Positions 1,710 to 39,533 of a DNA stretch of 64,000 bases are shown in pieces. Source of the DNA: Mobula hypostoma. Its lineage: Eukaryota. The stretch lies in contig NC_086097.1 of the NCBI RefSeq assembly GCF_963921235.1, positions 85,190,001 to 85,254,000 on the forward strand, given 5' to 3'. Position 1 is the first letter of the stretch. Every line of letters starts with the position of its first letter. A program made the position numbers and the translations under genes. The notes beneath the pieces were generated by a model. It saw nothing but the letters and a program-made list of their open reading frames with translations, was not told where the DNA came from and searched no databases.

Positions 1710-2050
1710 TTTGGATGACACTGCCAGCAATGGCCCATCAGTGGAGATGTGACTGAGGCCTGAGCTGGGCCCTAATGCCAGATCTGCTCTCTCCATAGAG
1801 GTCAACATCACCATGACTCTTAACTCCCTCACCACTGGCCTCTTGATGTCTTCCAGTGTGGCTCCACCACTGTATTTAAGGGAAATCATTTCCACGGCCT
1901 CCAACTCAGTAAGCAACAAGTGGCATTTTGGGCACAGGAATTCTCCAGCCACACTGTACTCCTGACAAGCTCTGTGGCCTCTGATTGCCATGTTGCACTC
2001 CAGAACAAGTAGGTGTAATGTCCATTGTGTCACACTTTGTGACCAAGCCA
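1710..2050 (-). mobile_element. Old CR1 ORF1-like remnant (host of the solo LTR)
   Basis: Minus ORF has an ECNM...CPKC Cys pattern reminiscent of the CR1 ORF1 zinc finger. Confidence 0.35.
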
Positions 2051-2249
2051 TCTCATTCAGTAAATGCGCTCACCATTGGCTGACCCTTCAATTTTGCACA
2101 CAAAGGAAGGCTTCCAGAGAAAGAGCTGCACTTACTATGTATAAAAACAGAAAATACTAAAAACACTTGTCAGGTCAGGTGACATCTAGAAGGAAGAAAA
2201 AGTCAACATTTAAGATCCAGGAATCTTGGCCAGAACTGAAGAAGTGAGT

Positions 2250-2945
2250 TCCATGTACCTATCTGAGAGTCTCTTAAAATACCCTATTGTATCTGCCTCT
2301 ACCACCTTCGCTAGCAGTGCATTCCACTGCCTGTGTGAAAAACTTACCTTTGACTTCCCCCTTGTACCTACTTCCAAGCACCTTAAAACTATGCTGCCTC
2401 GTGTTAGCCATTTCAGCCCTGTGAAAAAGCCTCTGGCTATCTACACGATCAGTGCCTCTCATCATCTTATACATCTTTATTAGGTCATCTCTCATCCTCT
2501 GTCCTCTGTCACTCCAAAGAGAAAAGGTCAATTTCATTCAACCTGTTCTCATAAGGCATTCTCTCCAATCCAGGCAACATCCTTTGTAATCTCTTCTGCA
2601 CTCTCTCTATAGTATCCACATCGTTCCTGTAGTGAGGTGACCAGAAATCAATGGGGGGGGGGGGTCTAACTAAGGTCTTATATAGCTTTAACATTACCTC
2701 ATGGCTCTTGAACTCAGTCCCATGGTTGATGAAGGTCATCACTCCGTACACCTTCTTAACAACACTGTCAACCTGCACAGCAGCTTTGAGTGTCTTAGGG
2801 TCACAGATCCCAAGATCTCGCTGATCCTCCACATTGCCAGAAGTCTTACCATTAATATTATATTCTGTCTTCAAATTTGACCTACTGAAATTAACCACTT
2901 CGCACGATCTGGGTTGAACTTCATCTGCCACTTCTCAGCCCTGTA
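2250..2945 (-). mobile_element. CR1 LINE 3' fragment
   Basis: ORFs 2509-2931 and 2274-2537 carry CR1 ORF2 C-terminal motifs (LYKTLVRP, ERVQKR, MRDDLIKMYK, FFTQ). Confidence 0.85.
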
Positions 2946-2994
2946 TCCCAACGATATATGGTTGGGTTATTATAGTCTCACAATATCATGACTT

Positions 2995-4844
2995 GGCAGT
3001 CAAAGTGAAGGATAATCCAAAGAGCTTTTACAGGTATATTAAGAGCAAAAGGATTGTAAGGGATAAAATTGGTTCTCTTGAAGATCAGAGTGGTCAGCTA
3101 TGTGCGGAACCAAAGGAAATGGGGGAGATCTTAAGTAGGTTTTTTGCGTCTGTGATTACTAAGGAAACTGGCATGAAGTCTATGGAATTAAGGGAAACAA
3201 GTAGTGAGATCATGGAAAGTGTACAGATCGAAAAGGAGGAGGTCCTTGCTGTCTTGAGGAAAATTAAAGTGGATAAATCCCCGGGACCTGACAGGGTGTT
3301 CCCTCGGACCTTGAAGGAGACTAGTGTTGAAATTGCAGGGGCCCTGGCTGAAATATTTAAAATGTCGCTGTCTACAGGTGAGGTGCCGGAGGATTGGAGA
3401 GTGGCTCATGTTGTTCCATTGTTTAAAAAAGGATCGAAAAGTAATCCGGGAAATTATAGGCCAGTAAGTTTAACGTCGGTAGTAGGTAAGTTATTGAAGG
3501 GAGTACTAAGAGACAGAATCTACAAGCATTTGGATAGACTGGGACTTATTAGAGAGAGTCAACATGGCTTTGTGTGTGGTAGGTCATGTTTGACCAATCT
3601 ATTGGAATTTTTCGAGGAGGTTACCAGGAAAGTGGATAAAGGGAAGGCAGTGGATATCGTCTACATGGACTTCAGTAAGACCGTTGACAAGGTCCCGCAT
3701 GGGAGGTTAGTTAGGAAAATTCAGTCGCTAGGTATACATGGAGAGGTGGTAAATTGGATTAGACATTGGCTCGATGGAAGAAGCCAGAGAGTGGTGGTAG
3801 AGAATTGCTTCTCCGAGTGGAGGCCTGTGACTAGTGGTGTGCCACAGGGATCAGTGCTGGGTCCATTGTTATTTGTCATCTATATCAATGATTTGGATGA
3901 TAATGTGGTAAATTGGATCAGCAAGTTTGCTGATGATACAAAGATTGGAGGTGTAGTAGACAGTGAGGAAGGTTTTCAGAGCCTGCAGAGGGACTTGGAC
4001 CAGCTGGAAAAATGGGCTAAAAAATGGCAGATGGAGTTTAATACTGACAAGTGTGAGGCATTGCACATTGGAAGGACAATCCAACGTAGAACATACAGGG
4101 TTAATGGTAAGGCACTGAGGAGTGCAGTGGAACAGAGGGATCTGGGAATACAGATACAACATTCCCTAAAAGTGGCGTCACAGGTAGATAGGGTCGTAAA
4201 GAGAGCTTTTGGTACATTGGCCTTTATTAATCAAAGTATTGAGTATAAGAGCTGGAATGTTATGATGAGGTTGTATAAGGCATTGGTGAGGCCGAATCTG
4301 GAGTATTGTGTTCAGTTTTGGTCACCAGATTACAGGAAGGATATAAATAAGGTTGAAAGAGTGCAGAGAAGGTTTACAAGGATGTTGCCGGGACTTGAGA
4401 AACTCAGTTACAGAGAAAGGTTGAATAGGTTGGGACTTTATTCCCTGGAGCATAGAAGAATGAGGGGATATTTGATAGAGGTATATAAAATTATGATGGG
4501 TATAGATAGAGTGAATGCAAGCAGGCTTTTTCCACTGAGGCAAAGGGAGAAAAAAACCAGAGGAAATGGGTTAAGGGTGAGGGGGGAAAAGTTTAAAGGG
4601 AACATTAGGGGGGGCTTCTTCACACAGAGAGTGGTGGGAGTATGGAATGAGCTGCCAGACGAGGTGGTAAATGCGGGTTCTTTTTTAACATTTAAGAATA
4701 AATTGGACAGATACATGGATGGGAGGTGTATGGAGGGATATGGTCCGTGTGCAGGTCAGTGGGACTAGGCAGAAAATGGTTCGGCACAGCCAAGAAGGGC
4801 CAAAAGGCCTGTTTCTGTGCTGTAGTTTCTATGGTCTATGGTCT
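2995..4844 (+). mobile_element. Young 5'-truncated CR1 LINE with an uninterrupted RT ORF (2993-4768, 591 aa)
   Basis: KSPGPD, NYRPVSLTS, QHGF, GVPQGSVLGP and KFADD motifs; (TCTATGG)n tail; candidate 7 bp TSD ATGACTT at 2988-2994 and 4845-4851. Confidence 0.95.
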
Positions 4845-6499
4845 ATGACTTTACTGGACAGCTCTGTATTTTTTTTTGAAGATCTATTCATCTCCCTGTC
4901 CTACTTACTTCGCCTGTGCGGTTAGATTCTGTTTCAGGTTTTCCTGATGGTTCTGAAAATACTATTTTGTGATGTGGTTCTCTCAGGAAACTTTGGTTCA
5001 GGTATAATTAAGTTCCTTTTCAACACACATCTTTTGGAATGCATTCCCTGAATGTCATTCTTATCTGTGTTTTCTGATGACCTGATCATGAATTAAAAGA
5101 AATGGTTAGAAATGTTGCCTAAAGACAAGATCTACACTCAATCTATTACCTTCTTATTGAAAGTAAATTGGAGCATTCTGCCAAATTCATCTCTATTGTT
5201 CTACGTTATCTGTTTTTATATGCAAGTGAATGAGTAGCTTTCTTGATTTCATGAGCTTGATAATCTGGTCAGATAGATGTATGCATTATCACTGATAAAG
5301 ACTGTTACTGATAAAACTGATTAGTTCAGTCTTCTATGTGCCAAGCCCTCAACGGAGAAAAATCAAACTGCAAGCATCTGAGAAAGGGTCGATGAAGGGT
5401 ATTAATGACTCCATTAAACAGTTCAAAGTCCTGACTAAGCTAAACTCTTTCTAAATAATATTTAGGGTTAGTCTACTTAAAATACATAGTTGCCTGTGAG
5501 GGTATTAAATTATGAGAAAGTTCAGTCGACAATGTTTATTGTTTTACGCAGAAATTTGATCTTTAGTAAACTCGTAGAATTCAGATTTGCCGGGATGTAT
5601 TTTTCTAGAAAGATTGCTGCACTTAATTGATGATTGTAGGACAATTTATTTCTATGTTTGCTAACCTGAATGACTTTCCCATTTTCTCTATAAAATGGTG
5701 ATGGGGTCCTGTTTTATATCCTGACAACCAAGTTTAGCACAGCTCAATATTAAGAGCGTAATAGCTTACCTTGATGTGAAGTTCATTCCTATTCTCAGAG
5801 TTAAGAAATGAAAGAAAAATTTTAAGAGACTAACTATCTAAAACTGCAAGAGTTTTGCCTCAATTATAACTGATCCATTCAAACAGCTAATGGTTACTAA
5901 ATCTAAACTGAATTCAAATGTCTTCAGGTTGCATTAAAGGCAAAGGAATAAATTGAATTTGCTGCTGCTGGTTTATTAGCTGAAACAAAGAGATGTTGCT
6001 AACATCACACTACCAAGCTCCAACAACACCTATAATTCATGCCTCTTTCAGTTTTAGTGTCACCTGGATGTGTTCTCTTTGTCAAAAAGACCAAAAGGTT
6101 TCCTAATGATGGATTTACCCTTTTTTTATATTAGGATTACCATGCCACACTTTTCAAAAAATGTTACTCAGCCGAGAAAAAAACAGAAAATGAGAGGTGG
6201 TCATTTGGATCTCGTTGTCTTCATCATCCTCGCTGGCTTTCACTGGAGTAAGCCAGAATTAGTCCCAGTGCTTCCAATTAGTTAACTGATTAACTCAAAA
6301 GACTGAAGAAGGATCTTCCAAACCTAAAAATACAAATTGCAGCCATTCCTTTGTGACTGCAAATGAATGTCCCATGATGATCATGGTCCCACACTTGTTA
6401 TATTTATATCTGTAATTCAAGAACAGTTAGCAAGGTTCATAGTCTATGTTTTCACCTTTACGCCTTTACATCTAAAGCCTCACCAAGCTTACTGTTAGT

Positions 6500-26648: not shown

Positions 26649-27076
26649 GTACCTCTTCCTAGAGATGCTGCCTGGCCTGCTGCGTTCACCAGCAACTTTT
26701 ATGTGTGTTGCTTCAAATTCCAGCATCTGCAGATTTCCTCGTGTTTGCGAGTTTAAATTAGCATCATGGTCAACACAACATTGGGGGCTTGTTCCAGTGC
26801 TGTGCTGTTCTAAGCTACCGTCATCTCCACTGACTTTATTCTAGCTCATTTCATATGTTTGCAATGCTCATCGCCCATCCCAAGATGGCTACCACATCCC
26901 TTTCATGGTGGACAGTACCTGCAGTTGCACCTCTCTTTTTCTGGTGACTTACAGCAATTTCCAGTTTTCTTTTCCTCTCTACAGGAACTAAAATAGAAGT
27001 ATTTCACTGAAATGTTGCACAGTTTACTTGTGTGACTGCCACAGCTGAACAGTTCCAAATATGCACATGCTGTGCA

Positions 27077-27236
27077 TGGGATACTCAGCAAATTCTACGT
27101 TTGTGTTGAATATGAAGAGTGACTCCAGATGACGGGAGGTTGTGAGGGAGACAGACATTGTGATGCTGTGAGAAGTGCCTGAGGCTGGTGTATTTTGGAA
27201 TGTAGCATTTGAAGATTTCCTTAGCTGATCTTAGCT
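27077..27236 (+). repeat. Left copy of the ~160 bp direct repeat flanking the Hero element
   Basis: Matches 39373-39533 with 4 substitutions and 1 indel. Confidence 0.95.
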
Positions 27237-28917
27237 GTGTACATACTTCTACTGATGCCTCTGGACACGTCTTCAGTGATGTTACTGGAATCATTGGGTG
27301 TTTCAGGTCTTTCAACATCATACAACCTCCTCCAGGTGACCCAGCCGGGGCTGATCAGACCCCAGCTTGTGTCCAGATGGCTAGCTACTTATGACTCCAT
27401 GGCTCCCCTCTTTTGAGCCACAGCCACCTTGAGGCCCTCTCTGCCGCATCGGTGGTACTGCGGATGGCTCTCCTCTTCCTCTCTCCCTCGATGCCCAAAA
27501 TGCTGAAGGTTTTGGCTAAGGAATGGGCTGTGAATCCCCTACAACCAACCTCCACTGGGAGACACCTCACTCTCCATCCAGCCTGCTGACAGTTGCTGAC
27601 CAGTCCTGCGTACTTGGAGAGCTTCCTTTCAAAGGCCTCCTCCAAGCTATCTTCCCATGGGACTGTCAGCTCCAGCAACACCACTTGCTTAGTAGACTCA
27701 GACACTAGGACAATGTCTGGTCGCAGGGTGGTGGCTGCGATATGGTTGGGGAACTTCAGCTGCCCTTCGAGGTCCACCAACAGCTGCCAGTCCCTTGCAG
27801 AGGTCAGAATGCCTGCAGATGTTCTTTTGGCAGGTATTGGCTGCTCCCCAGCTCTGACAAAGGCAATGGTCTGCTTGGAGGGTCGGGACCGCTTTGTCCA
27901 CTCAACTCCTGTGCTGACGGCTTCAGCAATGGTCTTCAGGACCCGATCATGCCTCCACCTGTACTGTCCCTCACCAAGTGCCCTTGCGCAGCCGCTGAGG
28001 ATGTGCTCCAGGGTTCCTCGCTTGGAGCACAGTGGGCACGCAGGTGACTCTGCCTTGCCCCATGTGTGCAGGTTTGATGGGCTTGGAAGCACATCGTACA
28101 CTGCCTGGATGAGAAATTGGATGCGGTGTGGTTCGGCTTTCCAAAGATCAGCCCAGGTCACTTTCCTCTCAACCGCATTCTCCCATCTTGTCCAAGCTCC
28201 CTGATGCTTCATTCCCACCGCCTTGCAGGTTCTCACCTCCTCCTGAACTAGACGACGCCTTTCCTTCCCTCTGGTGTCCATTTGGGGAGTTTTAAAGGAT
28301 CCTAGCCCAGCTCGGCCTTGTGTGACCACTCCCACCAGCCTCCTGTGACGCAGCCTCGCCTCTCCCTCCTGAACAGCTTCCTCTGCCCTCCACTTCCTGC
28401 CAGTCCTCACTTGGATCCCTGCTCTAGCCACCTTCGGGTCACTTGAGTCCCTATACTGTAGCACTTCTCTGGCTCTTGTTACCTTGAATTCCTCCTCCAA
28501 GGATTTGAAGGGCAGTTTCAGTTTGTTGTGGTGTCCATAGAGTGCGATGCTGCTCAGGCTCTTTGGCAGCCCCAGCCATCTCCTGAGGTGGTTGCTAACC
28601 CTCCTCTCTAACGTTTCGACTGTTGAGATCGGAACTGCATAGACGAGGAGGGGCCACAGGATTCTGGGAAGAATGCCATGCTGATACACCCAGGCTTTAA
28701 ATTTCCCAGGTAGGCCAGACTTGTCCACAGATTTCAGCCAGCCTTCCAACTCGGTGCAGGTCGCCTGGATGGATGTCATGTCCCTTAAAGAGCTGTCAGA
28801 AACTTTGCCTAAGCTCTTGACTGGCTTTTCTGTGATGGTTGGGATGGCTGTGCCTGCGATGCTGAACTGGAACTTGTTCTCCACCTTCCCCTTCCTCAGC
28901 ACCATCGATGTTGATTT

Positions 28918-29139
28918 CAAAGTTGCTGGTGAACGCAGCAGGCCAGGCAGCATCTCTAGGACGAGGTACAGTCACAGGTAAGATCACTAGCTCTTCTTTT
29001 AGTTAGTCCTGACAAAGGGTCTCGGCCCGAAACGTCGACTGTGCCTCGTCCTAGAGATGCTGCCTGGACTGCTGCGTTCACCAGCAACTTTGATGTGTGT
29101 TGCTTGAATTTCCAGCATCTGCAGATTTCCTCGTGTTTG
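28918..29139. mobile_element. 222 bp Penelope pLTR-derived hairpin inserted in Hero
   Basis: 28918-28973 is the reverse complement of ~29037-29092. 15 bp TSD CATCGAT(G/C)TTGATTT at 28903-28917 and 29140-29154. Confidence 0.9.
29005..29040 (+). ncRNA. Minimal hammerhead ribozyme copy with a core G-to-A change
   Basis: AGTC-CTGACAA-AGGGTCTCGGCCC-GAAA-CGTC-GACT. Confidence 0.7.
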
Positions 29140-31533
29140 CATCGATCTTGATTTGGCTGGTTTGAAATGCATCCGGGCCCACTCCACCAGCTTTTCGAGC
29201 CCCTGGCAGCCTGGGACTGATTCTGTGTTGACTGCGAGGTCATCCATGAATGCCCTGATAGGTGGTTGCCGTTGAGCGGAATTCATTCTGGGCCCTCTGC
29301 ACTCTGGTTCAGCAGACTTAGTGAGCATGTTCATGGCTAGGGAGAACAGTGTCACTGAGATAGTGCACCCTGTGATGATGCCGACCTCCACCTTGTGCCA
29401 GGTTGATGTAATTGCTGCTGAAGAGACCCTCATCCTGAAGTTGCTGTAATAATCAGCGATAAGGTCTCGGTTTCTGCTGGGGACGGGATGTTTGGTCAGT
29501 GTGAGCTGCACCAGCTTGTGCGGAATGGAGCCATATGCATTTGCCAGGTCGAGCCACAACACTGACAGGTTGCCCTTGTTCTCTCTGACTTCCCTGATGA
29601 GCTGTGTCACCACACCGATGTGCTCCAGACAGCCCGGCATCCCTGAAATACCACCTTTCTGGACTGATGTATCAATATAGGTGTTCTTTGCTAGGTAGGT
29701 GCACAGCCGATTGGAAACTGCACTGAAGAAGATCTTCGCCTCGACACACAGCAGGGAGATGATGCGAAACTGATCTATCTGGGTGGCATTTTCCTCCTTC
29801 GGGATCCACACCCCTTCAGCCACTCTCCACTGTTCTGGGATCTTCCCCCTTCTCCAGAAGATTCTCAGGATCTTCCACAGACGCAGCAGGGGTTTGGGGC
29901 AGTTTTTTTTTTATTAATTTTTTTCTGCGTTTCTACACTATAGCTACAGAAAAAAAACATCAATAAAATGGAGATTTATACAGAGCAAAACAAACATGTC
30001 CAATATATAGTTCATAACAATAAAGAAAAAGCACCCAAAATAAACTCATGTAAGATTAACCTCCCACTAAAAAAAACCCCAGGCCAACCATTTCTGTGTA
30101 TAAAAGAAAAACATAATCGGAGCACTCGACCCCACAGAGCTGTAAATATATATATAAAAAAGAAAACATAATGCCGACTACCAAAACTATAATGTAATTC
30201 ACAACAAAAAACCATAAAACCTACAGGAAAAAAAGCTGAAGGTAAGGGATTGTAGTACAAAAAAAGGGATGGACTTAATCTAAAGAGGAGTTATGAAAGT
30301 ATTCAGGAAAAGGTCCCCACACCTTTTGGAACTTTATGTCCGAATTGAGAATTGAGTAATGAATCTTTTCAAGGTCTAAACGGGACATAATATTACTAAG
30401 CCATTGAGCGTGAGTGGGTGGGGCAGCATCTTTCCACCTCAGAAGAACTAACCATCTAGCCAAGAGAGAGGCAAAAGATAATGTTCGACGTTTAGTCGGA
30501 CTCAGGTGCATGTCTACTTCACTCAAGATGCCAAAAAGAGCAATCAGAGGGTTAGGTTCGAAGTGGCAATTAAGAATATGGGATAAGGTTGAAAAAAACT
30601 TCTCTCCAGAATTTCTCTAGACTAGGACAGGCCCAGTACATATGGATAAGAGAAGGCTCACCCCCTTTACCCTTATCACAAACGGGACTAGTGTCAGGAT
30701 AAAACTGCGATAATTTAGTTTTAGACATGCGAGTCCTGTGTACAACCTTAAACTATAAAAGGCAGTGGCGAGCACACAGAGAGGTTGAGTTCACTGACTT
30801 AAGAATTGAATCCCAAACCACATCAGATAAGGAGATATTTAAATCATTTTCCCAAGCAATTCTAATTTTATCGAAAGGGGCACACCTCAAGATCACTAAC
30901 TTATCCCGAATAACAGCTATTAAACCTTTACCCAATGGATTGATACAAAGAAACAAATCCAGAACATTTTTCTCAGGCTTCTCAGGAAAGTTTGATATTA
31001 AGGGTTAATGAAATGTTTAATTTGAAGATGTCTAAGGAAATGAGTATTAAGTAGGTTAAACTTTACAGACAGTTGTTGAAAAGTTGTAAAACGATTACCT
31101 ATGAAAAGATCTTTAAAACGCCTAATACCCTTTCTGTACCAATCATAAAATGTTGAATCCTTCATGGAAGGTAGGAAAAGATGATTTTGTAAAATAGGGC
31201 TGGAGAGAGAGAAACCATGAAGGCCGTTATATTTTCTGAACTGTGTCCATATTCTCAGAGTATGTCTAATAAGAGGATTAACAATTAGTCTAGACAAATG
31301 ACAGGGAACTGCGGATCCAAACAGTGCAGAAATGGAAAGATCCTTACGAGAATTCAACTCCATTGACACCCATTTTGGGCAGTCAGACTGATTATGAAAG
31401 AAAGACCAAAAGGTAAGGCAGTGAATATTGGCTGCCCAGTAATAAAAACGAAAATCGGGCAAGGCCATACCATCTTCCCTTTTAGGTTTTTGAAGATGAA
31501 CTTTATTAAGTCTGGGCCGTTTGCCCTTCCATA

Positions 31534-32218
31534 TGTAGCCCCCTGGTAGGCCTCGGGCTCACTCAACTCACTTTCGTCTAAGGGAAGCAGCCTTCAGCCC
31601 CTCCAAACTGGGTAATCAAGTTTGTGTGGATGCTGTGTGATGTACCCCACCCCGCCAAATAACAGACAATACACCATATACGATTAAATGATTACACTTT
31701 ATAGATATTATTGGAACTATATGATTAATAGAGATAAAATATAAAAGGAAAGTAAAAGGCGCCAAACTTATCAAAGTTCAACCTCTTCGTGGAGGTTGGA
31801 GCTCTAGTAACAGGGTCAGCTTTCCACCATTCGATCCCCTCTGACCACCTCGACCCGCTGCCTGGGACCAACCACAGTGGTCGACCAGACGCTCCACACC
31901 AGTCTGTTGTCGTCTCCTCTCCTTGCCGAAGACCCTGGACCTCGAACTCCGGCTTCGGGTCCGACCAGCCGGCCAGCTCACAACATCGCATCCACCCTCT
32001 CTCTCCCCATCGCGCCTTCTGCCCAAAAACCCACGCATCACAATAGCTTACAGACACACAAAAAAGAATAACATCTATCCCAATTGGTTAGCAACTGAAT
32101 ACAACTCTTTCTATAATCCAAACAAGCTGCTAGCGAGAGAACTTTCTCAGCAGTTAACATAACAAAGAAGCCATTTTAATTAGCCTACAGAGTAACATAA
32201 AAGAAGAAAACCCTTACA
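31534..32218 (-). mobile_element. Solo LTR (685 bp) inserted in L1 ORF2
   Basis: TGTAG...TTACA termini and a 4 bp TSD CATA (31530-31533, 32219-32222). Removing it restores L1 IISSYLWKGKRPRL. Strand is inferred. Confidence 0.88.
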
Positions 32219-35167
32219 CATAGATAGGAGGAAATAATAGAATCTAACGCATCAAAAAAAGCTTTAGAAATAAAAATTGGTAAAGATTGAAATAGATACA
32301 AAAATTTAGGAAGGATATACATTTTAATAACATTAATTCAACCTACAACAGACATGGACAAGGGTGACCACTGTGTCAGATTCTGTTTTGTAGAGTTTAG
32401 ATGACTGGTAAAATTTTTTCGAAAAAGATTCTTAAAGTTCCTTGTTACTGTAATACCAAGGTAAGTGAGTTAATTGTTAACTACTTTAAAAGGGAGGTCA
32501 TGGAATATTAATGCTTGGCTTCTCTATTGATCGGAAAGAGTTTGCTCTTGTGTAAATTAAGTTTATAACTGAAAAGCTATAATTAATTAAAATTTATTAA
32601 GGAGTGAAAACATTGGGGGTAAGGAGGTAGTCGGATTTGATATAAAAAGTAAAAGATCATCAGTATAAAGAGAAACTTTATGCGCAACACCCCCTCTCCA
32701 AATCCCCATCAATTCAAAGCAGCTACGAAACGCAATCGCCAATGGCTCTATGGCCACATCAAAAAATAAGGGACTTAAAGGGCATCCTTGACGGGTGCCA
32801 CGTTTAAGGCTGAAAGACTGGGATTGTTGAGAGTTGGTCAAAACAGAAGCAGTGGGACATAAATGTAACAATTTAATCCATGTAATAAATCTTCGTCCAG
32901 AATCAAATTTTTCTAAAACCGCAAAAAGGTAATTCCATTCCACATGATCGAACGCTTTCTCCGCATCAAGAGAAATAACACATTCAGGAGTCCCAATTGA
33001 GGGTGAATATAAGATATTAAATAAGCGACGTATATTGAAAAAGGGAAGGCGATTTTTAATAATACCAGTTTGATCTGCAGAAATAATAGAGGGTACAATG
33101 TTCTCTAATCTACAAGCCAAAACTTTCGCCAAAATTTTAACATTGACATTTAACAAAGAAATCAGCGTATACAAAGAACACTCTGTCGGATCTTTATCTT
33201 TTTTGGCTAAAAGAATGATACGTGCCTCGTTAAGTGATGCTGGCAATTTACCGTGTTTAAATGAATCAGATAGAACTAAAAATTATTGAGACAAAAGCAG
33301 TGAAGAAAATGATTGATAAAATTCTACAGAAAAGCCATCAGGTCCAGGAGATTTACCCCACTGCAATGCAGAGATGGCAGATGATATTTTCTCTAGTGAT
33401 AATGGCTCATTGAGTTTTGCTTTCGGAGGAGAGCGAAGGAATATTTAAACTGTTTAAAAAATGCTCAACAGAGATACTATCATTTAAAGATTCAGAGGTA
33501 TAAAGTCGAGAATAATAGTTCTTAAATGTATCATTAATATCAGAATGATTCGAAATAATGTTCCCATTTCCCATTCAAATTTTTGTAATTTGTTGTTTAG
33601 CTTTAGAGCGTCTTAGTTGGTTAACTAAACTCTTAACCGGACTTATCCCCATGAATATAAAATTGACTCTTACTTTCAAGAAGTTGGCGTTCAACTGGCC
33701 GAGTGGAGATGAGGTCAAACTTAGATTGAAGTTCTACTCACTTCTTATACAGTTCGGGATTTTTGTTAGGGGCATATAATTGGTCTGTTGCTTTAATTTG
33801 ACTAATCAAGTCTAATCGCTCTAAATATGTCTTTCTTTTCCGATTCGCAGTATATGAAATTATTTGACCCCTCAAATATGCTTTCATAGCATCCCAGACA
33901 ACCTGGGATGAGATTTCAGATGACATGTTAGTACTTTAAAAAAAAAGTTATCTGGTCCTTCATAAATTTTACAAAATCATTATCTGACAATAAGGTCGGG
34001 TTAAAACACCAACGCTTATTCATTTGAGGAAAACCAGGGAAATTTATGGACAGAGTAACAGGGGCATGATCAGAAACCAATATACTCTGATAATCACAAT
34101 AATCAATTATAGTAAAAGTATGAAGGACATGTGAAAAAAAGGAATAATCTCTCTCAGTAGGATGGAAAAAAACACCACACATCAGAGATATCATAATTAG
34201 AAAGGAAAGAGTGAATAGATAGAGCAGATTTACTCCTCCTCCTCCTCATCTAGGGAGTCTAGGAACAGAGGAGGATCGATCCAATACTGGATCTAACCAA
34301 CAATTAAAATCACCACCCAATATGAGGGAATATAAACTCAAGTCAGGCAATAAAGAGAAAAAAACGATCACAAAAGTCCACATCATCTGAGTTGGGAGCA
34401 TAGAGGTTAGCCAAGACTACCCTATTATTAAACAATTTCCCAGAGACTATAATAAAACGACCATTTGTATCCGATACTTTGTTGTGAAGCTCAAAGGGAA
34501 CATTCTGATTAATAAGGATCGAAACCCCCCTGGTTTTAGCTGGAAAAACAGAATGGAAGTGCTGTCCCACCCACCTAGACATAAGGCGAAAGTTATCAAA
34601 ACCACAAATATCTGTTTCTTGCGAAAAAGCAATGTCAGCTTTGAGCTGCTTGAGATGTGAAAACACCTTCCTTCTTTTAACAGGATGGTTCAATCCCTTA
34701 ACATTCCAGTTTATTAGATTCAATGGGCTAACCGTTGTCATATAAAAAAGCATAAAGGGTAGTAGGCATAAATAGGAACAAACATTCAAGTAACAGCTCT
34801 GGGGCAAAGGTATAAGACAAGAAAATCAGGACAAAAAAAAGTCCTGAGTAACAAAGAATAACTAAGGGTTGTATAAATAGTGTTGGTGCTAGGGAACCCT
34901 CCCCCCACTCTAATCCAAAAGCAAGAAAGCTACCAAAGAACAGCAGCAAGCTCTTCAGAAAAAAACTATCCCTAACCCCAACTTCCAGTTTCTGAATATC
35001 TTCATAAGCTCCATTTAATTAACAGTTCATAAAAAAACAGAGAATTTATGCACTACGAATTAAAATTGTACATAAAGAAAAAAAGAAACGGTATCATCAA
35101 AGAGTATTAGACTTAACTCAACGTAATAATCCAGAGTACCATACCCGTGAAAAACTATAAAAAAGAA

Positions 35168-35505
35168 TTCAGTAATTAAAAATTTAGTTTAAAAAGAAAA
35201 CAGGGAAAAAAACCCTAAGAGAGAAAAAAAAGGTACTGATCGGCCATTTTAAATAATTAAATCAAGTCTGAAGGAGTCGCCATGGCAGGGAGACTTTCGA
35301 TAAATTTCTGAACTTCTGTAACAGAGTTAACCCATTTTCAGTAATTTAAAAATTTAATTTAAAAAGAAAACAAGGAAAAAACCAAAGAGAGAAAAAAGTA
35401 CTAATCAGTCATTTTAAATAATCAAATTGAGTCTGAAGGAGTCGCAATGGTAGAGAGACTTTGGATAAATTCCTGAGCTTCTGTAACAGGGTTGAACCAT
35501 TTTTT
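35168..35505. repeat. Diverged ~170 bp tandem duplication at the L1 ORF1 end and inter-ORF spacer
   Basis: Two copies of cagtaatt...gtctgaaggagtcgc...cttctgtaacag...ccatttt. Confidence 0.85.
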
Positions 35506-36243
35506 GTCCCCAATAGAAAAAGTTATTCGGAGACGGGCAGGATAACGCAGAGAGGGCCTGAATCCACGATTGTAGAACTCTTTCATAACAACTTTGTACT
35601 CGGCGCGCAGCCTCAAAACTTGAGGAGCATAATCTTCAACAATACGAATGGAATGATCCTTATAATGCAATTTTCCTCTCCGACATGCTTCCATAATCAA
35701 AAGGTTTTTCACCTGATATCGATGAAAACTGAGTATAACTGGGGGTGGCCTAGAGCCTAACTCGGGCTTGGCCAGAAATAAATGGTGAACGCTGTCTAGC
35801 TCAGGTAAAGTCGGAAGAGTATCTTTCCCAAAAATCTCACAAAGTAAAGAAGAAAAAAATTCAACAGGAGATCTGCTTTCGATAGCCTCTGGCAGACTGA
35901 AGATTCGTAAATTATGCCTTCTGCTCCGAGCTTCGAGATCAGTCATTTTAGATAATAACTTGGTGTTACACTCACTCAGATTAGAACAAACAGCTTCCAG
36001 CTGCTGAACATGACATTTTAAATCTTCGGTTTCTGAGTCAAGATGAGAGAGACGTACAGCATGATCCTCCACTTTGGAGTTAATTTGATCCAATTTTGAC
36101 TCCAACAAACTAAAATAAGACATATTCAGACTTAAATTGAGATATAATCTCCTGTCGGTGCTGATCCAAAATGGCAATAAGTCGGTAGAGGAGCCGGAGA
36201 CAGTGACTTCTTTTTTCCCAGATTTAGAGGGCTTGAAAGCCAT
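35422..36243 (-). CDS. L1 ORF1p (273 aa, open frame)
   Basis: Coiled-coil followed by DLEARSRRHNLRIFSLPE, IRIVEDY and LRYPARLRI, typical L1 ORF1 motifs. Confidence 0.85.
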   Translation of the reverse strand: MAFKPSKSGKKEVTVSGSSTDLLPFWISTDRRLYLNLSLNMSYFSLLESKLDQINSKVEDHAVRLSHLDSETEDLKCHVQQLEAVCSNLSECNTKLLSKMTDLEARSRRHNLRIFSLPEAIESRSPVEFFSSLLCEIFGKDTLPTLPELDSVHHLFLAKPELGSRPPPVILSFHRYQVKNLLIMEACRRGKLHYKDHSIRIVEDYAPQVLRLRAEYKVVMKEFYNRGFRPSLRYPARLRITFSIGDKKWFNPVTEAQEFIQSLSTIATPSDSI

Positions 36244-36670
36244 TGTAGGACAGGTGTATTCTCAGGCAGGTAGGAGAACAAAAAAAAAAATTAGCATTTT
36301 GGGGTAAAAAAAAGAAGATAAGAGGTGCAGAGGTAAGAAATGAAACAGAGCGCCAATTTTAAGCGATTAACCTATCACCATCTTACCGGAAGTCACAGGA
36401 CAGTTCTTGTACACTTTGTACAAGGTGTTGTTTGGTCCTGGAGCCGAGCTTGCCCTTGCTTTGTGGACGACCTCTCTGACTTCCTTTAGCTGCAGCTCTG
36501 ACATGTCGAACTTCACATCTGGTTCAGTGGGGTCTATTAGGATGTTGCACTCTCCCAACTCCTGCTGTCTTTCAGGATCACTGTATATCTTCTTCAGATG
36601 TTGGTTTATGTCTTCCTGCAAACAGGCCAATTTCCCACTGTGCTTCTGCCCTGGCAACTCCTTGGTGAAC

Positions 36671-39271
36671 GTGTTTGTAGCCCGGATATTGAACTTTTTG
36701 CTGTTGGACTCCGGCCATATTATTTACCAAGGGAAATCTCGCATGCAATTGTGGTTGTTGTGTACGTCCCTCCCTCTGCCAATCCGATGTCGATGTGTAA
36801 CATCATTTACACCGTCATAGCCAGATTACAAACCCAGCACCCGGGTGCCCTCATTACCATCTCGGGTGACTTCAACCAGGTTACCATGGCTAGAACACTG
36901 CCCAACTTCACGCAGTATGTGAGCTGTACAACCAGAGGGGAGAGGACTCTGGATTTGATGTACGCTAACATTAAGGATGCATACAGCTCCTCTCCCCTCC
37001 CCCCACTGGGAAGGTCAGATCACAACCTGGTGCATCTAAAACCCTGCTACGTGCCTCTGGTGAAGAGTAAACCTGTAACCTCGAGGACAGTGAGGAAATG
37101 GTCGGAGGAGGCTTATGAGGCGCTCCAGGGTTGTTTTGAGGTGACAGACTGGCAGGCACTCTGTGAGCCACATGGAGAGGATATTGATGGGCTCACAGAG
37201 TGCATCACTGATTACATCAACTTCTGTGTGGACTGCAATGTTCGACAAGAACTGTCCTTTGTTATTCAAATAACAAGCCATGGGTGACAAAGGACATTAA
37301 GGACATCCTGAATGCTAAAAAGAGGGTGTTTAGAGATGGAAATAGGGAGGAGCTGAGGGCAATACAGAGTCACCTGAAAGCCAGGATCAGGGAGGCTAAA
37401 GACAGGTACAGGAGGAAGTTTGAGTGGAAACTCCAGCAGAACAACATGAGAGAGGTCTGGAGGGGATGAGGACCATCACTGGGTTCCGGCAAACTAGCAA
37501 CAGAGGAGCAGAAGGCAGTGTGGACAGCGCCAATGAACTTAACCTGTTCTTTAACAGATTTGACATTGTGGCCCCTGCCCATCCCACACATGAGCCATCT
37601 GTTTTCGGCCCCCAACCAACACAAATTCCACTCTCCCCTCCTACCCCTCCTCACAGTCCCCCACCCTGCTCTCATGACTATACCCCTTCCCCACGCGAAA
37701 CCACCACAGTGGGCTTCACAACTGAACAGGTGAGAAGACAGCTGAAACGTCTCAACCCAAGCAAGGCTGCAGGACCGGATGGTGTCAGTACCAGGGTGCT
37801 CAAAGCCTGTGCCCCTCAGCTATGTGGAGTACTTCGCCATGTATTCAACCTGAGCCTGAGGCTCCGGAGGGTTCCTGTACTGTGGAAGACGTCCTGCCTC
37901 GTCCCTGTGCCGAAGATGCCGCGTCACAGTGGCCTCAATGACTACAGACCGGTGGCATTGACCTCCCACATCATGAAGACCCTGGAGAGACTTGTTCTGG
38001 AGCTGCTCCAGCCTATGGGCAGGCCACACTTAGAACCCCTCCAGTTCGCCTACCAACCCCGACTAGGAGTTGAGGATGCCATCGTTCCTCTGCTGAACCG
38101 TGTCTGCGCCCACCTGGACAAGCCAGCGAGCACTGTGAGGGTCATGTTTTTTGACTTCTCCAGTGCGTTCAACACCATCCGCCCTGCTCTGCTGGGGGAG
38201 AAGCTGACAGCGATGCAGGTGGATGCTTCCCTGGTATCATGGATTCTTGATTACCTGACTGGCAGACCACAGTACGTGTGCTTGCAACACTGTGTGTCCG
38301 ACAGAGTGATCAGCAGCACTGGGGCTCCACAGGGGACTGTCTTGTCTCCCTTCCTCTTCACCATTTACACCTCGGACTTCAACTACTGCACAGAGTCTTG
38401 TCATCTTCAGAAGTTTTCTGATGACTCTGCCATAGTTGGATGCATCAGCAAGGGAGATGAGGCTGAGTACAGGGCTGCGGTAGGAAACTTTGTCACATGG
38501 TGTCAGCAGAATTATCTGCAGCTTAATGTGAAAAAGACTAAGGAGCTGGTGGTAGACCTGAGGAGAGCTAAGGTACCGGTGACCCCTGTTTCCATCCAGG
38601 GGGTCAGTGTGGACATGGTGGAGGATTACAAATACCTGGGGATACGAATTGACAATAAACTGGACTGGTCAAAGAACACTGAGGCTGTCTACAAGAAGGG
38701 TCAGAGCCGTCTCTATTTCCTGAGGAGACTGAGGTCCTTTAACATCTGCCGGACAATGCTGAGGATGTTCTACGAGTCTGTGGTGGCCAGTGCTATCATG
38801 TTTGCTGTTGTGTGCTGGGGTAGCAGGCTAAGGGTGGCAGACACCAACAGAATCAACAAACTCATTCGTAAGGCCAGTGATGTTGTGGGGATGGAACTGG
38901 ACTCTCTGATGGTGGTGTCTGAAAAGAGGATGCTGTCCAAGTTGCATGCCATCTTGGTCAATGTCTCCCATCCACTACATAATGTACTGGGTGGGCACAG
39001 GAGTACATTCAGCCAGAGACTCATTACACCAAGATGCCACACAGAGCGTCACAGGAAGTCATTCCTGCCTGTGGCCATCAAACTTTACAACTCCTCCCTT
39101 GAAGGGTCAGACACCCTGAGCCAATAAGCTGGTCCTGGACTTATTTCCTGGCATAATTTACATATTCCTATTTAACTATTTATGGTTCTATTACTATTTA
39201 TAATTTATGGAGCAACTGTAATGAAAACCAATTTCCCCCGGGATCAATAAAGTATGACTATGACTGTGACT
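36671..39271 (+). mobile_element. Rex1/Babar-like LINE (partial APE endonuclease plus RT ORF 37424-39127) inserted in Hero
   Basis: VYVPP, GDFN, TRGERTLD, SDHN, KAAGPD, DYRPVALTS, QFAY and KFSDD motifs; (tatgac)n tail; short AAC duplication at the junctions. Confidence 0.92.
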
Positions 39272-39372
39272 AACTTGAAGGGGTTGGTGATAAAGGCAGC
39301 ACGTTTTCTGGCCCTTTCACGATGCCGCCTCTGGTGCCACTCTGTCCGGTGGAGAACCCTGATCTTCTTGCG

Positions 39373-39533
39373 TGGGATACTCAGCAAATTCTACGTTTGT
39401 GTTGAATATGAAGAGTGACTCCAGATGACGGGAGGCTGTGAGAGGAGACAGACATTGTGATGCTGCGAGACGTGCCTGAGGCTGGTGCATTTTGGAATGT
39501 AGCATTTGAAGATTTCCTTAGCTGATCTTAGCT
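39373..39533 (+). repeat. Right copy of the ~160 bp direct repeat flanking Hero
   Basis: Matches 27077-27236. Confidence 0.95.

Follow-up and report, generated by a model that had tools for sequence, protein, structure and literature searches.

The 64,000-nucleotide stretch of Mobula hypostoma DNA analysed here (contig NC_086097.1, positions 85,190,001–85,254,000; the window in what follows) harbors a Hero-like retrotransposon bordered at both ends by a direct repeat of about 160 bp. This repeat is very likely a true target-site duplication (TSD) of host DNA, because it abuts both ends of the element and the corresponding site in another organism, designated D, has a single-copy look. Only about 7% of the other family copies carry long duplications, whose lengths vary widely, and the long duplication is therefore likely an occasional outcome of repair rather than a fixed, nucleosome-sized cut.

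The Repeat Pair and Its Junctions With the Element

The two copies of the repeat lie at 27077–27236 (160 bp, on the 3′ side of the element, delimited by alignment and genome search) and 39373–39533 (161 bp, on its 5′ side), neither being assigned a strand. Local alignment confirmed them as direct repeats of 96.9% identity over 161 columns (E = 2e-73 within the window), differing by four substitutions (27140/39436, 27169/39466, 27174/39471, and 27191/39488) and one indel (39443), as the first-pass annotation had reported. Its placement of the repeats against the 3′ end of the element and the point of 5′ truncation also held at both junctions: the repeat begins at the 3′ end (ATGTACAC|AG) and stops at the truncation point, near position 809 of the 3,633 bp unit. 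Read in the sense of the element, the duplicate opens with AGCT at the element's 3′ end, an AGCT that is common to that end. The match extends 4 bp farther leftward with one mismatch (27073–27076 versus 39369–39372), and this extension is a near-microhomology with the truncation point, matching at three of four bases.

A search of the whole genome (3.48 Gb) with the 160 bp, a check that the first-pass annotation had proposed, returned two matches, both belonging to the window's pair; very common words were skipped by the search program. The 160 bp was absent from the 3′ ends of other Hero-like copies, the flanks differing in all 134 copies examined, and among 300 mismatched pairings of flanks, which served as a chance control, the longest match was 13 bp. 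An element tail, a transduction, and a tandem copy, as candidate sources of the 160 bp, were ruled out by the genome search and the unrelated flanks of other copies. The earlier identification of the 160 bp as duplicated host DNA is thus supported by the two genomic matches, by 3′ ends that are shared among copies with differing flanks, and by the site in organism D.

Sequencing runs were searched for this site in the source organism (A) and in organisms B, C, and D. Both repeat variants are present in source-sample contigs. The site is occupied in B, in which contigs cross both element junctions, and in C, in which each of two runs gave a single contig whose end, at the 5′ junction, is element sequence. 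Organism D (one run, depth 2.7–2.8) yielded two contigs of 162 nt, neither of which enters the element. The first covers 27082–27175, its loose end resembling the left flank; the second covers 27147–27236, and its loose end matches the right flank exactly. The two overlap at 27147–27175. The site in D thus apparently consists of the left flank, one 160 bp copy, and the right flank, with no element, as in an empty site. D fits the expectation that a relative should hold a single copy, through two contigs of low depth, neither of them bridging; B and C are occupied.

An origin independent of the insertion, through an older tandem duplicate, a later rearrangement, or an assembly error, or else as sequence borne by the element, is very improbable. 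The low depth of the empty-site evidence speaks for it, and against it stand the exact abutment at both element ends, the recurrence of duplications in 14 other copies, the lack of any other genomic match, the recovery of both variants from the source sample, and the occupied junctions in B and C.

Target-Site Changes Across the Family

A 23-base pattern from the 3′ end of the family has 1,930 exact matches, dispersed in the genome. All 134 copies examined end in ..ACAC followed by A; the next base is G in 120, then C or T in 121 and A or T in 106, and the flanks beyond are unrelated. There is no fixed target site, only a weak bias of the form T-rich | G-(C/T)-(A/T).

Target-site changes were scored in three samples. 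The first comprised the 39 copies, other than the window copy, that best match its 3′ end. The second took 94 of the initial 100 pattern hits on contig C1, two others being already in the first sample and four being neighbours of another match. The third was drawn from 90 loci with variant 3′ ends, of which 7 were left out (the window, five copies of one array, and one upstream tail of L067), 22 had a junction beyond reach, and 61 were scored. The duplication test was gapped and junction-anchored, and duplications were counted from 19 bp. Two loci whose junction was chained to a farther fragment (L133 and L179) were entered as untested negatives, and L307 (27 bp, 85%, doubtful) and four cases of 10–13 bp (L070, L180, L191, and L252) were left uncounted.

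In the first two samples, 10 of 133 copies carried a duplication (L042, L061, L064, L107, L112, L146, L150, L164, L166, and L167), about 3–4 of 39 in the first and about 6–7 of 94 in the second, with lengths of 19, 22, 28, 39, 45, 52, 55, 59, 74, and 90 bp. The third sample contributed 4 of 61, with lengths of 20, 20, about 30, and 113 bp (the last at L316). Altogether, 14 of 194 other copies (7.2%, 95% confidence interval [CI] 4.0–11.8%) have a duplication of 19–113 bp; it exceeds 20 bp in 11, to which the window is added, and reaches at least 100 bp in one. Duplications of 140–200 bp were found in 0 of the 194 (upper 95% bound 1.9%). The other 180 copies have less than 19 bp or a doubtful match, nearly all at chance level, and no kilobase duplication was found in 134 copies for which 1.5–8 kb upstream (median 6.4 kb) was searched. 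Empty sites could be rebuilt for 24 copies that have both flanks within a single known repeat; the figures are rough, many of them resting on one hit. Of these copies, 21 fell within ±11 bp of blunt, the others giving −16, +81, and +880; at L041 the rebuilt change was −1 in 40 of 52 hits. The family profile is a near-blunt mode with a tail of long duplicates of variable length.

Copies with variant 3′ ends, the window's variant included, show the same rate of long duplication, and a subfamily effect was ruled out by this equality. A second Hero-like family contains a 113 bp duplicate of 99.1% identity at L196 (L196:3665–3777 / 5218–5330). It is distinct from the window family, having no DNA match to it and 26–58% protein identity, in pieces, to teleost relatives. 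No long duplicate was found in the 11 of its 29 further copies with a 5′ junction clearly within reach, which are too few for a rate.

These counts bear directly on the model in the first-pass annotation, an R9-type stagger of about one nucleosome made at each insertion. The 160 bp case and the two 113 bp cases (L316 in the same family and L196 in the second) are in its favor. Against it, none of the 194 copies falls at 140–200 bp, 180 have no counted duplication, and the 39 copies nearest the window's 3′ end behave alike, three exceeding 19 bp and one measuring exactly 19 bp. A fixed or nucleosome-sized stagger was ruled out by this census, and we regard the model as scarcely credible. Measuring flanking repeats across the family, as that annotation had suggested, gave no fixed length and mostly copies without a long duplicate. 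Its fallback, a one-off repair event, is also too strong, since about 7% of copies show a long duplication, of lengths that scatter.

A Proposed Mechanism for the Long Duplications

We lean, if only slightly, toward an account in which the Hero-like element's own second-strand nick failed in the window and host repair joined the complementary DNA (cDNA) to a break 160 bases downstream, copying the gap. Insertion would begin with a first nick and target-primed reverse transcription, the 3′ end of the RNA (..ACACAG, often on to C) matching the first target bases; the junctions are observed, and the chemistry is assumed from established knowledge of R2. Normally a second cut would follow within a few bases and give the near-blunt insertion seen in the junction counts. 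The 5′ end was instead joined 19–160 bases downstream in about 7% of events, in the window over the near-microhomology of three in four bases, for a reason that would parallel that in R2. Fill-in would then duplicate the sequence lying between these breaks. The window copy afterward received three younger insertions. T is enriched in the five bases before the 5′ junction of copies without a duplicate (243/590 versus a background of 30%, p = 2e-8, n = 118 copies) and T-rich bases also precede most duplicate starts, a pattern consistent with joining near the first nick.

In R2, the second-strand nick normally falls 2 bp from the first. Variants in which this nicking is poor are described as leaving heterogeneous duplications of about 1 kb in place of small deletions, a shift that a lower protein dose also brings about (PMC13486585, 2026). 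Among long interspersed nuclear elements (LINEs), long TSDs (>20 bp) form a recognised class, and how often they occur varies with the host cell line (PMC4245944). The shift seen on weakening the R2 nick and the cell-line dependence of long TSDs therefore favor failure of the second nick over loose cutting and template switching.

Under loose cutting, the second cut would also come from the nuclease of the element; it would mostly fall next to the first cut and sometimes tens to more than 100 bases downstream, through a loosely placed second-subunit nick or looping. Duplications become gradually fewer with length between 19 and 160 bp and stop well short of the approximately 1 kb seen in R2 with host breaks, and R9 links this enzyme type to a stagger of 126 bp (PMC6895275). 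Loose cutting is nonetheless unlikely on balance, since no motif common to the downstream ends was obvious by eye and this outcome is associated, for R2 and L1, with a loss of nicking or with the type of host cell in the accounts cited (PMC13486585; PMC4245944). Replication-coupled repair is a less probable route still: a fork would meet the nicked intermediate, and the cDNA end would invade the downstream duplex or sister chromatid through microhomology and switch template with no second nick. Several 5′ junctions show microhomology or extra bases, the L061 duplicate holds an internal 8 bp repeat, the L042 duplicate starts 12 bases late, and copies with long duplications tend to be short (median insert 393 versus 708 bp, p = 0.02, a post hoc comparison with the window copy left out). 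Such a route would be expected to leave kilobase duplications too, of which none was seen, and the window copy keeps about 2.8 kb of the element.

Several points weigh against failure of the second nick as the cause. Sequence alone cannot separate a host break from a loosely placed element cut or a template switch at a fork. The R2 duplications measure about 1 kb, and here none exceeds 160 bp (median 6.4 kb upstream searched). Of the 11 long duplications in samples one and two, just 4 show by eye a microhomology of at least 3 bases at the 5′ junction. For R2, the break has been proposed to fall in the non-template strand of a gene under transcription; the element here is antisense to its presumed host gene, so that, unlike in that proposal, the broken strand would be the template. 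The empty site in D, finally, is assembled from two low-depth contigs that overlap by 29 bases, with no single contig bridging.

Age of the Insertion

At all four substitutions the bases of organism D agree with the 3′ copy of the repeat, and at the indel they agree with the 5′ copy, which polarises all five differences: four arose in the 5′ copy and one in the 3′ copy. B and C lack two of the four substitutions, which therefore arose later in A; contigs from B and C miss much of the right flank, and holes in them were excluded as evidence. The Hero-like insertion predates the split of A, B, and C, and it probably postdates the split from D. The repeat copies differ at 5 of 161 positions (95% CI 1.0–7.1%), and the window element differs from the family majority by 3.56%, against a median of 2.39% for 113 copies. 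If all of that 3.56% had arisen after insertion, about 11 differences would be expected rather than 5 (P = 0.03), and ages are therefore rough. The approximately 3% divergence, which the first-pass annotation had offered as a relative age for the whole stack, dates the Hero-like insertion loosely and gives only an upper bound for the nested elements, which are younger.

Identity and Structural Variants of the Hero-Like Element

Assignment of the window element as Hero-like is well supported by its predicted protein. The open reading frame (ORF) at 27385–28971 contains a C-X2-C-X7-H-X4-C knuckle and an RPD..E..K restriction-like endonuclease motif. The order reverse transcriptase (RT), CCHC knuckle, and PD-(D/E)xK restriction-like endonuclease is found in one protein, the pieces being collinear with the single proteins P0003 and P0038. 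The window ORF pieces align collinearly with single teleost proteins, with identities of 79–88% to P0003 (Limanda); 48–69% overall, and 65–69% over the RT and C-terminus, to the Tetraodon proteins AAN12398.1 and BAC82599.1; and 47–68% overall, and 59–68% over the RT and C-terminus, to Takifugu BAC82598.1. Similarity to solved R2 proteins is weak (E about 1e-3). We take AAN12398.1 to be Zebulon of Tetraodon, which presumably has a tandem structure. HEROFr and HEROTn correspond to AB097130 and AB097131 (PMC2790886), and BAC82598 and BAC82599 are probably their products, judging from the species. HERO elements are described as largely non-site-specific (PMC4640811; PMC3636483). The window family resembles the HERO clade (HEROTn/HEROFr and Zebulon) in protein similarity, in its lack of site specificity, and in full-length copies that carry a piece of their own 3′ end upstream.

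Nine of the 10 copies that reach the 5′ start of the unit have 8 to ~570 bp of their own 3′ end directly upstream (L040, L062, L067, L128, L137, L169, L172, L180, and L184), which could be read as a head-to-tail or pseudo-long terminal repeat (LTR) structure; the tenth, L103, is internally deleted. Sixteen of 133 copies join unit positions ~605–670 to ~3260–3330 and have no RT. Nine of these have nearly identical junctions and different 5′ ends (L051, L058, L060, L104, L111, L114, L140, L168, and L195), the further ones being L059, L069, L103, L151, L173, L174, and L176, and the common junction suggests either that a non-autonomous derivative is mobile or that jumps concentrate at this spot. 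On contig C2 (147.606–147.617 Mb), five element 3′ ends with similar flanks and a spacing of 1.3–2.8 kb (L266–L270) are a truncated copy amplified inside a tandem array. Protein identity of 82–88% between 27385–29907 and elements of flatfish and catfish (P0003 and P0001), found in a cartilaginous-fish-like genome, suggests horizontal transfer.

Organization of the Locus

The window copy comprises four minus-strand pieces, about 2.8 kb of the 3,633 bp unit, and is 5′-truncated and split by a short repeat and two LINEs. The 3′ part (27237–28917, unit 1930–3633) includes the 3′ untranslated region and the C-terminus of the ORF, with the knuckle and endonuclease motif. It is followed by a nested short repeat (28918–29139), which, as read from the sequence, has an inverted 5′ piece and is flanked by a 15 bp duplication with one mismatch (28902–28916 / 29140–29154); the arrangement at 28902–29154 resembles a twin-priming product. 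The RT part lies at 29140–29907 (unit 1166–1944; PF00078 match, 1e-16). Next is a decayed minus-strand LINE (29908–36397), which we take from its features to be L1-type, with an ORF1-like frame, endonuclease and RT fragments, a poly-A tail, and a duplication of ~9 bp. Within it, a segment at ~31630–32220 of differing character, starting with TG and ending with CA, is possibly a solo LTR on inspection. The pre-RT part of the Hero-like element (36398–36673, unit 900–1176) precedes a plus-strand LINE with endonuclease, RT, and a short-repeat tail (36674–39271), presumably Rex1/Babar-like from its features, of which a second copy is present near 22.8–23.9 kb of the window. The 5′-most retained part of the Hero-like element (39272–39372) is truncated at about unit position 805–809.

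The plus strand carries Calx-beta exons of an SLC8-type gene ~400 kb and 48 kb before the window (84.79 and 85.14 Mb, an apparent intron of 350 kb). The window would be intronic in this host gene, for which SLC8A3, named in the first-pass annotation, is a candidate paralogue. No exon was found in the window with 13 short motifs as queries. Host pre-mRNA was rejected as the template, since it would be of the wrong strand if the host gene runs on the plus strand.

Comparison With Known Systems

The window case exemplifies a known LINE outcome at an unusual length. None was found described for Hero: the literature searched gave no account of Hero target-site changes, a weak absence in that Repbase Reports, most subscription papers, and supplements lay outside the search. 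The useful part is the family-wide profile, a near-blunt mode with a 7% tail of 19–160 bp, for a dispersed element with a restriction-like endonuclease. The second-nick mechanism outside R2 is described as an open question and large-scale target-site sampling as limited (PMC13486585); the approximately 2,000 Hero-like copies here allow such sampling. As a warning to annotators, TSD finders capped near 30 bp will misplace the ends of such elements. It is conceivable, if doubtful, that Hero proteins lack a reliable second-strand nick and that thousands of dated germline copies record host-completed insertion, mostly near-blunt but with some duplications extending to at least 160 bp. In that event, Hero families would offer a natural, non-site-specific test bed for the R2-type two-subunit second nick beyond R2.

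The Hero-like copies resemble the LINE long-TSD class (PMC4245944) in that a minority of long, variable duplications, exceeding 20 bp, occurs at otherwise ordinary insertions. That class is described in cultured cells for apurinic-endonuclease LINEs, with a usual TSD of 5–15 bp, whereas the Hero-like copies are germline and fixed, belong to a restriction-like-endonuclease element, and are usually near-blunt. With nick-compromised R2 (PMC13486585) they share the endonuclease type, the near-blunt default, and downstream joins that duplicate the target; R2 is specific to ribosomal DNA (rDNA) and the effect is engineered and about 1 kb long, whereas the Hero-like duplications are natural, dispersed, and 19–160 bp in length. 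R9 of Adineta vaga, with a TSD of 126 bp (PMC6895275; PMC13486585), is likewise a restriction-like-endonuclease element with a duplication of more than 100 bp. In those accounts R9 is rDNA-specific, R2-derived, and assigned one length, whereas the window family is dispersed, has no fixed duplication length, and is only weakly similar to R2.

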